A program made the position numbers and the translations under genes. DNA of 64,000 nucleotides from Candidatus Kapaibacterium sp. (lineage in GTDB: Bacteria > Bacteroidota > Ignavibacteria > Kapaibacteriales > UBA2268), in NCBI GenBank assembly GCA_963665665.1, contig OY762428.1:3200001-3264000 (forward strand). Reading direction: 5' to 3'. Every line of letters starts with the position of its first letter. Positions within the stretch are counted from its first letter, which is position 1. Shown one piece after another: positions 27,592 through 41,144 of the stretch. The notes below the pieces were generated by a model, which saw only the letters and a program-made list of their open reading frames with translations, had not been told where the DNA came from and searched no databases.

Positions 27592-28090
27592 TTTCTCCTT
27601 CCCAAGCCCTGCTTGGGAAGGAGAAAGTTGTCCTTGGATAAAATATCCGATAGAGTATTAAAATGATATAAAAAAGCTCCGTAGGAGCGACACAATCTTT
27701 TGACTATGTCGCCCCGATGGGGCTTTTGTTTTTACCGGGTTTGCCTTTCTACAAAAATGTCGCGGCTACGCCGCTTTCGATTTGGGAAGATGTAGAGGTA
27801 ATGAATGACTGTTATTTGAGAAGAATCCACCCCCGCCCTTCGGACACCCCCGCCAGCGGGGGACAGTTCTTTTCCTCCTTCCCAAGTTGCACTTGGGAAG
27901 GAATATTTCCTGCAAAGTTATACTTTGCCATACACTGTTTCAACGAATTACAAATAACAGATTCATTTACGAAGCTCATCTTCGTATAAAATTGGCATTA
28001 CCAAGTCTTTCTACAAAAATGTCGCGGCTACGCCGCTTTCGGTTAGGATAGAATGTAGGGGGAAGGAATAACTGTTATCTGAGAAGAATC
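27592..28090. repeat. Mosaic of REP-like hairpins with an ~83-bp direct repeat (27745-27827 / 28007-28090)
   Basis: TTTCTCCTTCCCAAGC/GCTTGGGAAGGAGAAA, GCTCCGTAGGAGC, GCCCCGATGGGGC, CCCCCGCCAGCGGGGG; 35 identical nt CTTTCTACAAAAATGTCGCGGCTACGCCGCTTTCG twice. Confidence 0.85.
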
Positions 28091-28634: not shown

Positions 28635-29990
28635 CTATCTCTCCACAACCAATTTCTCGGAAATACTCTGCCCGTTCATTTCCATATTCACGAAATATAT
28701 TCCTGAAGGAATATCAGATATATCCAATTGAATAGCTGTATTGCCCGAGTTATACCACTTTGAACTAAAATCCTTAACAATAGAGCCGTCAATTCCGGTT
28801 AGCCTGATACTCAAACTTCCGGCATCTATTAAATTTAGTTCAACAGTACAATTGCTTTCTGCCGGATTAGGTATAATGTTGAATTCCAAAGTCTTTTCTT
28901 GCTCTTCAACGCTAACAACTCCGGGCGTCCATTTTGCATTAAGCATGATTAGGCCAGCAAATTTTGAAGGAACACAAATTATTTTATTATCGTTCGGTGA
29001 TAATTCAAATTCTTTGATTGATACATAATATTGTCGGACATTTTCCTTTTTCTCTAAGTTAAATATATTGATTCTTGCAAGCCCTTTTCCATTAATACTT
29101 TTTGACAAAAAGAAATTATTATCTGAAGAAAATTGAAAGTTTTCATTACCATAAAAATCATCATTATTAACAATAATAGTTTCCAGATTTTCAAGTGACG
29201 GCATACTATAAACATCAATCTTTTCATCATAAACTAAGAATAACTTTGTTCCATCTTTTGAAAACTTCATATTCTTTACATTCTTTTCAAGCTCAAAGGA
29301 TTTAATGATATCCCATGTTCCATAATTCATGAGAGCTAAAGAATAATAAAAATCTGTTCCGCTGTAATCCCTGAAATGAATTCTTTCAATAATTATATGC
29401 TTATTATCTGGGGAAATTCTCATTGAATAGCATCCTGTCCTCGTGTCTCCAATTTTCTGTTCATAAAGAATTTCCTGTGTTTCAAAATCCCACGCCATAA
29501 AAAATATTCTATTATAGCTGAATTCCGATGATGCTTGAGCAGAACCTTCAATACAATAACTATCATCATATGACAAATAAGAAATAAAAGGGTATTCGGG
29601 TTCAAATTCAAATGTCTTTATAATCTCCATTGTATTTGGATCTAACAATACCTGTTCTTTTTTATTATGGATAGTAAGATCAAAATATGTAATTAAATAA
29701 TTTCCTGATGGTGACAATTGATAGCCTTTTAAATAATCTTTACCTGTTGAATCTTGAAAACGTTTTGAATTTAAAATAGAACCGTCTTCAATTGATCTTT
29801 TTTCAATGGAATGGGTTGTTTTATTAAAAACAAAAAAAGATTTTCCATCAGGATGAAATTGTAAAGATTCAAATAATGCAATTGGTTCATCTTGTCCAAT
29901 TGTCCACGCAACGTCGGGCAGTTCGTCCTGGGCAATTGTAGGGCTTATTAGTAAAAGTAAAACAAACAGTTTAATGATTGGATTTTTCAT
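28635..29990 (-). CDS. Beta-propeller (WD40/PD40-like) protein with T9SS type A CTD
   Basis: Signal peptide; FHPDG/LSPSG/ISPDN/FSKDG blades; IPNPA...IPSGIYFV...KLVVER. Confidence 0.85.
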   Translation of the reverse strand: MKNPIIKLFVLLLLISPTIAQDELPDVAWTIGQDEPIALFESLQFHPDGKSFFVFNKTTHSIEKRSIEDGSILNSKRFQDSTGKDYLKGYQLSPSGNYLITYFDLTIHNKKEQVLLDPNTMEIIKTFEFEPEYPFISYLSYDDSYCIEGSAQASSEFSYNRIFFMAWDFETQEILYEQKIGDTRTGCYSMRISPDNKHIIIERIHFRDYSGTDFYYSLALMNYGTWDIIKSFELEKNVKNMKFSKDGTKLFLVYDEKIDVYSMPSLENLETIIVNNDDFYGNENFQFSSDNNFFLSKSINGKGLARINIFNLEKKENVRQYYVSIKEFELSPNDNKIICVPSKFAGLIMLNAKWTPGVVSVEEQEKTLEFNIIPNPAESNCTVELNLIDAGSLSIRLTGIDGSIVKDFSSKWYNSGNTAIQLDISDIPSGIYFVNMEMNGQSISEKLVVER

Positions 29991-38210: not shown

Positions 38211-39566
38211 CTATTCTTTAACAAATATTTCGCTAAATGTGCTAAAGCGGAGGGTGTAAATCCCCGCAGGTAAGAAGGATATATCTATTCTATGATTGGA
38301 ACTGGCTTGCCTGTTCAAAATATTTATCACTCTTTTGCCAAGCAGGTTGTAGATTTCTATTTGAGTATCTTGAACAAGGGGTTGCACCCCCTTGACTGCA
38401 TGGTTTATTTCAATAAAATCGGAAGCGGGGTTGGGGAAGATAATTATATTGTCCAACAAATTTTTGTTTTCTACATTTGCTTCAATAATATTAATTTTTA
38501 ATGCAGGATCGCCAAATAAATGAAATTGAAATAAGGCTCTGTTATATTCTTGTGCCGTTACATAGGGGTAATATTTTTTTACAGTTTCAGGCATTTTCTT
38601 ATTATTAATTGCTTTTATAATTACATCACCAAGTCTCTCGTTTTTATTTACTTCCTTGCTGAAACCATACAATAAAGGATTCTGTCCTCTCGACGAAGTA
38701 TTGAAAGCGCCAATAAATGCAACAGCTCCATTTTTAGATGCAAGCATTTTTGTCGCAAAGCAATCTGTTTCAAGAGTATCAATTTTGCCGGTAAATGTCC
38801 CTGTAAGACAAGAAGCTGAAAATACAACAGGATAATATTCAGAATTTGTTAAAAACGGAATCCCAAAAACCCCCATGCCAAAAGACCATTTCTGAATATT
38901 GCCGTGGCCATGATATAGAATATACTTTACATCGTTATTTATTGCCTGCACATCACTTAAAGCATCATTGGGTGTTTCATCAAGCGATGTTTCGTGTCTG
39001 TGCATGTACCCATAGCTTTTAAAAAAGGAATTATACATCTCAAATAATATTTCATCATTAAACTCAAGAACCCAGGGTTCGAGAGGTTCTGTAGGGTTAC
39101 CGCCTGCATGTGTATATATTTTCTTAGGGATATTTTCTAAATTCTTTTCAAATGATATTGTTTTATGAATAATATTACTTAATTCTTCTGTATTATCAGC
39201 AAAGAACAAACCTATCGGAATCTGAATACTGAACAAACTGTCGGTTTGCTCTGAAACCCAGTAATTGTAGGATTCTACAGCGCTGGAATATGGTATTTTT
39301 TTTGAGGGAAAATCGGAATGGCCGCCTACTAAAAGTATGTATTGCGGATTAATGCTTGAAATATAATTCTGAAATTCAGCAATAGTTTTCCCAATATCAT
39401 TATTAAGTTTATGAAAAACCTCGAAATCTATTTCTCGATATTCTACAAATTCTTTTAGTATTTCTGAGTTGTAAAAAGAATCATTTGAAATAATTAGATA
39501 TCTATCTTTCGAATACATATCAAAATACGTAACAAAAAATATCACAATAAGTAAAAGCGCCCTCAT
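38211..39566 (-). CDS. Peptidase C25 (gingipain-like) with T9SS type A CTD
   Basis: YILLVG, catalytic YHGHG and SASCLTG, GAVAFIG, LFGDPAL; FPNPA...LPAGIY CTD. Confidence 0.88.
   Translation of the reverse strand: MRALLLIVIFFVTYFDMYSKDRYLIISNDSFYNSEILKEFVEYREIDFEVFHKLNNDIGKTIAEFQNYISSINPQYILLVGGHSDFPSKKIPYSSAVESYNYWVSEQTDSLFSIQIPIGLFFADNTEELSNIIHKTISFEKNLENIPKKIYTHAGGNPTEPLEPWVLEFNDEILFEMYNSFFKSYGYMHRHETSLDETPNDALSDVQAINNDVKYILYHGHGNIQKWSFGMGVFGIPFLTNSEYYPVVFSASCLTGTFTGKIDTLETDCFATKMLASKNGAVAFIGAFNTSSRGQNPLLYGFSKEVNKNERLGDVIIKAINNKKMPETVKKYYPYVTAQEYNRALFQFHLFGDPALKINIIEANVENKNLLDNIIIFPNPASDFIEINHAVKGVQPLVQDTQIEIYNLLGKRVINILNRQASSNHRIDISFLPAGIYTLRFSTFSEIFVKE
38299..38316. repeat. In-frame palindrome in CTD (encodes NRQASS)
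   Basis: GAACTGGC-TT-GCCTGTTC, one mismatch. Confidence 0.6.
38375..38394. repeat. In-frame palindrome in CTD (encodes VKGVQPLV)
   Basis: CAAGGGG-TTGCAC-CCCCTTG. Confidence 0.7.
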
Positions 39567-40771
39567 CTCATCACCAGAAATTTATCCGAATAATTCCCAA
39601 TTTTAATAAAATATTGCTCTGCGGGAAGACCTGAAATATCTATTCTTTGCATGGAACAGGCTTGCTTGTTCCATGCATTCAACACGCATTCGCCAAGCAG
39701 GTTGTAGATTTCTATTTCTTCGTCATCAACCCAGGGGTTAATCCCTGGGTTGACAATCTTAATTTCAATAAAATCTGAAGCAGGGTTGGGATAGATAGAT
39801 AGTATGGGTTCGTGAATATTATCATCAACTTCTGTTAGCTCTGAATATTTAAGAAGTGTCCTCTCCCCTCCGCAGGCATAAACTATATTTCGTATAGGAA
39901 ATACTTTTCCAAGTGTATTTTTTGTTCCGCTTTCTTCTTTAATCCATGTTTCTCCAAGATCCGTAGATTTTAAGATTGTACCTTTGTTGCCAACTGCCCA
40001 GCCATTGTTCTCATCTAAAAAAAATACGTCATATAGTGTAAGCTCTCCATATACAGGATTTTTCTTCGTTTGCCAGTCCATCCCATTGGTAGTTTTTGAT
40101 ATCATACCTGCATCACCAACGGCAAAACCTGTTTTTGTACCAGGTAAGAAATAAATCCCCACATGATTGTCGTGGGAATAACTTTGGTCCCTTTGGTCAA
40201 CATCGTCAATCAGATGCCTTATTACATATTCACCGCAAATCCAGGCCTCGTTTTCTGAAATCATTGAAACAGCATCAATATCAGAGGCAATATTCAGCTC
40301 AATTTTATTGATTCCGGAATCTGAAATTCTATATACACTCCCATTCTGCCCGGTTAAATATCCGGTTGATTCCATTGTAGGATTGGGTGGGAAGTCAATA
40401 TCGGTAATTGTTCCGTCCCCCATTGTCCCGTGATATTTCCAATCGGCCCCGCCATTAGTTGTTTTATATACTATACCGCTATAACCTGCGCAGAAACCGA
40501 AATTTTCATTAATCATAAAGATTGTTGTTAATTGGGTATTATATTCGGTATCCTGAGGAGTGAAAGTGACGCCGCCGTCATTTGTGAAAAATACTTTCTT
40601 AGCAAGCAAGGTTGTTATCCAACCGGTATTTTCGTCAATAAAGAAAACATCAGTAATCAAATCATTGCTGTCAATAGGGACATTTTCACCAATATCCACC
40701 CAGCCATACTCCTGGGCACTTAAGGGGAAAATAAAGAATATGGCAAGCAAAAGGGATAATATCGTTTTCAT
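39563..40771 (-). CDS. YCF48/BNR-repeat beta-propeller with T9SS type A CTD
   Basis: Repeats FTNDGG/KTTNGG/KSTDLG with DVFF.DE..GW; YPNPA CTD; start at MKTIL. Confidence 0.88.
   Translation of the reverse strand: MKTILSLLLAIFFIFPLSAQEYGWVDIGENVPIDSNDLITDVFFIDENTGWITTLLAKKVFFTNDGGVTFTPQDTEYNTQLTTIFMINENFGFCAGYSGIVYKTTNGGADWKYHGTMGDGTITDIDFPPNPTMESTGYLTGQNGSVYRISDSGINKIELNIASDIDAVSMISENEAWICGEYVIRHLIDDVDQRDQSYSHDNHVGIYFLPGTKTGFAVGDAGMISKTTNGMDWQTKKNPVYGELTLYDVFFLDENNGWAVGNKGTILKSTDLGETWIKEESGTKNTLGKVFPIRNIVYACGGERTLLKYSELTEVDDNIHEPILSIYPNPASDFIEIKIVNPGINPWVDDEEIEIYNLLGECVLNAWNKQACSMQRIDISGLPAEQYFIKIGNYSDKFLVMR
39648..39677. repeat. In-frame palindrome in CTD (encodes AWNKQACSMQ)
   Basis: TGCATGGAACAGGC-TT-GCTTGTTCCATGCA; 14-bp arms with one G-T pair. 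Confidence 0.85.
39726..39753. repeat. In-frame palindrome in CTD (encodes VNPGINPWVD)
   Basis: TCAACCCAGGG-GTTAAT-CCCTGGGTTGA; perfect 11-bp arms. Confidence 0.85.
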
Positions 40772-41144
40772 AGCCTTTAAACCAATGGTGTACAAGTTTT
40801 TATAAATTTATAAAATATCAGATTACTTTCAAAGAATATTTTATAACTGTCCCGATAAGGGAATACTTAAAATGCCTGAAAATTGTATCAATTATATATT
40901 CCATCATTTTTCGATATATTTCAAGTGGCAAATCACAATATATCGGAATAAGCCTAAATTAAAGAATTAGCGATATAATATAACTGAAAGGGCAAAATGT
41001 TGATTTAACTGATGTTCAATTAATGGTCTATCAATTGAACAAGCAGACATAATATATCACATTTAATTCATTTAGTCCCAAAGGTAACACGATTATCGAT
41101 TTTTTGGGGAATGGTAAATCCGATACTATCAAAAAAAGCTATTC

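Follow-up and report, generated by a model that had tools for sequence, protein, structure and literature searches.

In-frame palindromes at two sites of type IX secretion sorting domains in a Candidatus Kapaibacterium genome: probable copies of REP-type elements

The stretch of DNA analysed here (the window; 64,000 nucleotides of Candidatus Kapaibacterium sp., contig OY762428.1 of assembly GCA_963665665.1) contains two adjacent genes that end in a type A C-terminal sorting domain (CTD) of the type IX secretion system (T9SS), and in each of these domains palindromic DNA is translated in frame at the same two sites. This locus raises the question of how such palindromes came to lie in the coding sequence of a sorting signal, and whether they are kept there for a function. 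The answer developed below is that the four sites are probably in-frame copies of palindromic elements of the repetitive extragenic palindromic (REP) type, residing in two tolerant places of one CTD subfamily; a role of the hairpins for the protein or the gene is not indicated. The features concerned are the following (nt, nucleotides; aa, amino acids).

38211-39566, minus strand: gene 1 (P0001), 451 aa, Peptidase_C25-like with a T9SS type A CTD (profile matches)
38214-38447, minus strand: CTD of gene 1, final 78 codons (PF18962, 47.2 bits; TIGR04183, 37.4 bits)
38299-38316, no strand assigned: loop-2 relic of gene 1, peptide NRQASS, core in common with the gene 2 palindrome
38375-38394, no strand assigned: loop-1 palindrome of gene 1, peptide KGVQPL, a worn copy of the 28-nt VNKGLQPLVH palindrome of relatives
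39563-40795, minus strand: gene 2 (P0002), Ycf48/BNR-like beta-propeller with a T9SS type A CTD (profile matches)
39566-39799, minus strand: CTD of gene 2, final 78 codons (PF18962, 41.4 bits; TIGR04183, 29.8 bits)
39648-39677, no strand assigned: loop-2 palindrome of gene 2, 30 nt, peptide NAWNKQACSMQ, derived from a GTAG-tagged REP with core GGAACAGGC-NN-GCCTGTTCC
39726-39753, no strand assigned: loop-1 palindrome of gene 2, 28 nt, peptide VNPGINPWVD, dispersed family TCAACC-N6-TTAA-N6-GGTTGA
28644-28877, minus strand: third CTD of the window, different CTD subfamily, internal control without loop palindrome

The evidence for the palindromes of gene 2 is solid. At site 1 (loop 1) two arms of 14 nt pair with one mismatch, or alternatively form a perfect stem of 11 bp, and at site 2 (loop 2) the arrangement is 14+2+14 nt, again with a single mismatch. 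When the amino acids of the CTD were held fixed and the codons redrawn from genome usage in 2000 runs, the scores of sites 1 and 2 were matched by 2 and 22 controls, respectively, and the joint score by none. In addition, the CTD of gene 2 folds as RNA with z = -3.78, both hairpins being formed, and none of 200 shuffles folds as well. In gene 1 the palindrome at site 1 is marginal: its left arm is degenerate and its right arm intact, the perfect stem measures only 7 bp (10+10 nt with one mismatch) and 35 of the 2000 controls reach its score. Site 2 of gene 1 (8+2+8 nt with a mismatch) is matched by 646 of 2000 controls and is not significant alone; it is counted as an element solely because it is homologous to the core of the gene 2 palindrome, which is the same in both genes and decayed in gene 1. 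Folding of the gene 1 CTD gives z = -1.70, with 11 of 200 shuffles folding as well. The initial annotation had placed two palindromes at the same two sites of both CTDs and proposed codon-preserving controls and RNA folding as checks. All four sequences are indeed in place and gene 2 lies beyond its controls, but gene 1 is weak and its site 2 lies at chance level. The same source was right that the two genes hold different palindromes at site 1, where near-identical flanks surround the differing palindromes, and that the third CTD shows none. Chance symmetry in a short coding stretch of odd composition could suffice for the control frequencies of gene 1. For gene 2 it is refuted by the joint score, no other CTD among the 362 of this genome exceeds a GC-rich hairpin score of 8, and repeat families elsewhere include homologues of the gene 2 palindromes. 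The probability of a chance origin is close to negligible.

Genomes of the same family are rich in CTDs of the subfamily to which those of genes 1 and 2 belong. In the first relatives inspected both sites are occupied by perfect palindromes of 28 nt, which start approximately 77 nt apart. A scan of species-representative genomes, in which loci were selected by CTD similarity to gene 2 and not by palindromes, yielded 71 loci from records labelled Candidatus Kapaibacterium, Ignavibacteria and similar. Of the 125 subfamily CTDs in these loci 94 were anchored by motifs and 31 were dropped. GC-rich palindromes are present in 58 of the 94 anchored CTDs (46 in loop 1, 32 in loop 2, 20 of them with both), while 36 have neither, and none of the 94 contains a palindrome elsewhere in the domain; the proposed confinement to two positions is thereby borne out in the relatives. 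If the count is restricted to GC-rich palindromes whose perfect stem reaches 9 bp or more, the subfamily CTDs hold 77 in 30.0 kb (2.57 per kb), other long open reading frames (ORFs) 13 in 500 kb (0.03 per kb) and the DNA outside long ORFs 44 in 104 kb (0.42 per kb), with none in 5.8 kb of other CTDs. The density in the subfamily CTDs is thus about 100 times that in other coding DNA of the same loci. Many loop elements have an unpaired GTAG ahead of the stem or CTAC after it, which means that both orientations are present. Site-specific classes of palindrome, with the GTAG type at loop 2 only, were considered and rejected, as neither the GTAG types nor the GGGCGGGTT family are limited to one of the two loops.

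The loop-2 element is shown to derive from a GTAG-tagged REP family. A search of 254 genomes of the order for this family (core GGAACAGGC-NN-GCCTGTTCC) gave matches in 13, each of them a member of the family of the window's genome, with at most 12 copies per genome; the reversed pattern, used as a control, gave no matches. In the loci read most copies lie between genes and take the form GTAG...CTAC, and inside CTDs they occupy loop 1 in one locus (L097) and loop 2, in another reading frame, in two (L096 and L107). A further copy lies in the genome of the window (G000) at G000:1014385. In the gene 2 copy the outer GTAG/CTAC has become GCAT/ATGC by matched changes in both arms. The loop-1 element of gene 2 is likewise shown to belong to a second dispersed palindrome family, TCAACC-N6-TTAA-N6-GGTTGA. 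Among 130 genomes of the bacterial family, 43 contain it, and a single genome may have as many as 28 copies (control pattern, 0 matches). Its variants are symmetrical and specific to each genome. In one genome (G133) all 11 copies lie outside CTDs, as do all 7 examined of the 12 in another (G127); in a third (G007) 5 of 10 copies are within CTDs, and two intergenic copies are present in G000. The loop-1 element of gene 1, finally, is shown to be a worn copy of a third palindrome, which is found in the same loop of relatives.

Genes resembling the REP-associated tyrosine transposases (RAYT) that accompany such repeats were found as well. One relative (L106) has a RAYT-like ORF of 209 aa with HUH and Tyr motifs, which contains a REP of the site-2 family in frame and has another just upstream. 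Outside the window, G000 itself contains a RAYT-like ORF (G000:C1:2248464-2249348, minus strand) that is intact, likewise shows the HUH and Tyr motifs and holds in-frame tandem half-REPs and a perfect 32-nt GTAG palindrome (peptide VETHG...) between the halves of the transposase fold; this REP differs from the window families. The match to the RAYT model is split at about position 68-70 in many relatives, the place where the REPs of L106 lie. Scores over the RAYT cut-off were obtained for 5 of 41 related genomes.

It could be argued that the palindromes were made in place without any mobile element, through within-strand template switching that perfects imperfect inverted repeats where a loop is weakly constrained. 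Related palindromes do differ by symmetrical changes in both arms, and loops with and without palindromes are alike in length, as such a process would have it. However, identical 28-nt sequences occur between genes, near RAYT-like genes and in either loop, and they are read in two different frames; many elements carry the unpaired GTAG tag; and donor copies outside CTDs were seen for both families tested. An in-place origin is therefore considered very improbable.

The CTDs of genes 1 and 2 are each other's nearest relatives (E = 8e-23; next CTD 1.9e-12), and the distribution of their identities indicates that they are mosaics. Three backbone segments are identical at 28/33, 30/33 and 13/15 nt, the middle one at all 9 of 9 third positions, while identity amounts to 21/45 nt in loop 1, 25/36 nt in loop 2 and 24/63 nt in the 3' third. 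Palindromes and flanks were also compared in 62 same-family pairs with flanks less than 90% identical. Flank identity averages 73%, the only unbiased value in this comparison, as the palindromes had been selected for at least 85% identity; in 28 pairs the palindromes are 100% identical. Flank identities of CTDs with differing palindromes were discarded, these flanks being out of register.

Identical palindromes between such flanks could mean that the hairpins are selected, either as RNA structures at the 3' end of the message, with effects on mRNA stability or translation pausing, or as DNA sites at which the tag is more readily exchanged or diversified. The excess of loop density over intergenic density, the matching changes by which both arms of the gene 2 site-2 palindrome depart, in the outer part of the stem, from the GTAG form, and the folding of the gene 2 CTD beyond its shuffles are all in keeping with selection. 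On the other hand, 36 of the 94 subfamily CTDs and all but two of the 362 CTDs of G000 manage without palindromes, the palindromes are highly variable in length, loop and sequence and occur in both orientations and more than one frame, the same sequences are ordinary intergenic repeats, and the window copies are decaying. A wobble bias at the RNA level was rejected, as single mismatches on the sense strand number 6 G-T and 6 A-C in a small and partly related sample. Selection of the hairpins is thus improbable, and the initial suggestion that the hairpins act as DNA sites through which the secretion tag is diversified or mobilised is not supported.

The position of the palindromes in the protein was predicted with an AlphaFold2 model of the last 84 residues of gene 2, based on 72 aligned CTDs. 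The model (pLDDT 83) has seven strands and the fold of an Ig-like beta-sandwich. The best Foldseek matches include the CTD of mirolase (8qb1, TM score 0.72), the NucA and RemA CTDs in T9SS complexes and the RgpB CTD, the E-values of the T9SS CTD matches being 3.6e-3 and weaker. The loop-1 palindrome encodes model residues 22-31, which map to a loop of low confidence at residues 23-32, and the loop-2 palindrome residues 47-57, which run from the end of a strand through a turn into the beginning of the following strand at the tip of a beta-hairpin. The DNA dyad at loop 2 coincides with this turn in the model. Mapping of the palindromes onto a predicted CTD, as had been proposed, places one in a loop and the other at the tip of a hairpin.

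In the genome of the window the picture is different from that in the relatives. An iterated profile identified 362 C-terminal sorting domains in the 5.46 Mb of G000; the Pfam model scored 150 of 375 candidate CTDs, all above its cut-off. The best GC-rich hairpin score per CTD is 11 once (gene 2), 8 once, 7 in 20 cases, one of which is gene 1, and lower in 340. Palindromes as a genome-wide property of CTDs were accordingly rejected, gene 2 alone standing out among the 362, and for perfect stems of 7-8 bp the CTDs of G000 are not enriched over gene bodies. Loop palindromes are present in 2 of the 362 CTDs, those of genes 1 and 2, and in one broken CTD. The latter (G000:C1:3266150-3266420) stands alone, approximately 2.2 kb past the right end of the window, and belongs to the same subfamily; its loop-1 TCAACC...GGTTGA palindrome is one base short of the perfect 28-mer, which causes a frameshift followed by a stop. 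The site-2 core has 2 copies in G000 and the site-1 family 3, in addition to the one in the broken CTD. Many dispersed, mainly extragenic copies per genome, as expected of a REP, are therefore seen in relatives and not in G000. The abundant hairpin repeats of G000 (the CCCCTCCT family with 117 hairpins and the CCTTCCCAAG family) were tried as a source and discarded, none being found in any CTD. The proposed comparison with the intergenic REPs of the genome shows other copies of both gene 2 families in G000, two of the site-1 family being intergenic, and no relation to the abundant families.

Two repeats of G000 are of note. One is a composite repeat (e.g. C1:547021-547095), in which the GC-rich hairpins CCCCCTCCTT...AAGGAGGGGG and TCCCCTCCT...AGGAGGGGA lie approximately 27 nt apart between conserved flanks; 117 of its hairpins have stems of at least 9 bp, and in G000 none of these carries a GTAG tag, lies in a CTD or occurs in the window. 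The other is a perfect 28-nt palindrome with core CAAGGGGGCATGCCCCCTTG at G000:C1:2725197-2725224, within a low-complexity stretch beside a degenerate Y1_Tnp match (L014), a transposase remnant. The CAAGGGGGCATGCCCCCTTG core fills loop 1 of a CTD in another genome (L074, peptide SKGACPLV).

The observations are best accommodated if entry of REP-type elements into CTD loops is a rare event, open to both orientations and to every frame that is free of stops. The CTD of T9SS cargo is cleaved off by the PorU sortase after export, and the elements would be tolerated because the domain that carries them is cut away. They would then spread among cargo genes together with pieces of the CTD through patchy recombination, and the loop copies may be refreshed from repeat populations where such populations exist. 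G000 appears to be without a live population of these REP families, and its copies would be left to drift: gene 2 shows one mismatch per palindrome, gene 1 seems half erased, and the broken CTD is frameshifted inside its palindrome. The worn condition of the window copies fits the missing REP populations of G000.

Several points weigh against this origin of the four sites. In G000 the repeat families concerned number only 2-3 copies, and a search of the metagenome collection for the exact window variants of both patterns gave no further copy. The choice of loci by CTD similarity to gene 2 may favour similar loops, and in these sampled loci the CTD-loop density exceeds the intergenic density about six-fold, so that tolerance alone is no sufficient explanation. 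The median loop lengths with and without palindrome are 14 and 13 aa for one loop and 16 and 17 aa for the other; they scarcely differ, loop length was discarded as a test of insertion, and in most cases replacement or decay of older copies, not simple insertion, has to be assumed. No pair of orthologues with an empty and a filled site was found for genes 1 and 2, G000 being the sole genome of its genus compared. The RAYT-like ORF of L106 scores 58.3 bits and the best of G000 34.8 bits, at an NCBIfam cut-off of 80. The recommended search for RAYT genes did reveal an ORF of this kind with a site-2 REP in L106, but it remains below the cut-off, and the ORF of G000 is tied to another REP. Finally, transposition was not observed.

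Some of these points would be explained if the two loops were an actively preferred harbour, to which a RAYT-type Y1 enzyme or hairpin-directed patch conversion directs elements, or in which it renews them from master copies located between genes. Such a preference would account both for perfect palindromes amid diverging flanks and for a density above that of intergenic DNA, and, if true, would let secretion-tag genes serve as a natural record of REP mobility. It is at present rather unlikely, although worth keeping in mind. Occasional entry of REP-type elements into tolerant loops remains the preferred reading. The original idea that CTD loops are hotspots for REP insertion therefore applies to the relatives, where only two loops are used, the density is raised about 100-fold and the same repeats are found between genes and adjoining RAYT-like genes; in G000 such a hotspot is not active, only 2 of 362 CTDs being involved, with imperfect palindromes.

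Three known systems invite comparison. Di Nocera, De Gregorio and Rocco (2013; PMC3733652) describe GTAG-tagged REPs as palindromes of 20-40 nt with a terminal GTAG, mostly extragenic and associated with a Y1 (RAYT-type) transposase; some units are intragenic and translated, and it is argued that units at the COOH-terminus of a protein may do no harm. The CTD elements resemble those REPs, as portrayed there, in being short palindromes with dispersed extragenic copies, a possible RAYT-type association and translation in some cases. The window palindromes measure 20-30 nt and are imperfect, within the size range of REPs. They differ in that the GTAG has been lost: site 2 of gene 2 has GCAT/ATGC, the other sites are untagged, and the loop-1 family of gene 2 is never GTAG-tagged. 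Furthermore, the intragenic REPs of that account (PMC3733652) are described in many unrelated genes, notably of replication and repair, whereas here two fixed loops are used at a density above that of intergenic DNA. The Rickettsia palindromic elements (RPE) are presented in the same source as in-frame insertions in coding genes that are translated as an extra peptide (PMC3733652). The present elements share with RPE the palindromic repeat in frame inside genes and its translation, a likeness in behaviour only; they recur at fixed sites of a cleaved sorting signal, where RPE, which belong to another lineage and lie in many genes, are not known to occur. RPE-1 is also much longer than the window palindromes.

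In the REPIN/RAYT system, reportedly described by Bertels and Rainey in 2011, palindromic repeats form a population whose master sequences differ from genome to genome, and this population is linked to a Y1 transposase present in a single copy. Palindromic repeat populations with genome-specific masters are found here too. Unlike REPINs, which are inverted doublets of one REP, the window elements are single palindromes about 76 nt apart, and the two of each CTD come from different families; and the RAYT-like gene of G000 is linked to another REP sequence than those of the window.

Intragenic REPs are known and have so far been treated as scattered accidents. The literature searched contained no description of REPs that recur in two loops of the T9SS sorting domain. 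To our knowledge REP movement has never been watched directly. The family-wide collection of in-frame elements at two loops offers a defined target for the study of REP insertion, the upkeep of symmetry and decay, and the copies of the window may show a late stage, that of REP-type elements after the loss of their repeat population. In addition, the two loops of this T9SS signal appear to accept almost any insert of 7-12 residues, which may be useful for tag engineering, and the elements account for odd recurring peptides in annotations, such as VGNRHACSL and INP.VNP.VD.

With regard to the genes themselves, P0001 and P0002 both exceed the curated Por_Secre_tail cut-offs of Pfam and NCBIfam (27 bits for PF18962 and 23 bits for TIGR04183). 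Their sorting domains lie at the extreme C-terminus and finish 6-7 residues ahead of the stop codon. By analogy with characterized members of the family, export of both proteins by the T9SS and removal of the CTDs by PorU may be expected. The likely start of gene 2 is the ATG at 40771, which is followed by a stretch that resembles, by eye, a signal peptide. The ATG that opens gene 1 overlaps the stop codon that ends gene 2 in the sequence ATGA (39563-39566), and because of this overlap the two genes are probably co-transcribed and translationally coupled.

Many third-party records of metagenome-assembled genomes that contain such T9SS cargo genes (L015-L085) are titled 'uncultured Hyphomicrobiales', a title that agrees poorly with what they contain and with how sister records are labelled (Kapaibacterium, Ignavibacteria). 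Within the window, a further hairpin family that is spread over the genome, TCCTTCCCAAG...CTTGGGAAGGA, has two copies, at 27592-27626 and 27876-27902, adjoining the gene that bears the third CTD.

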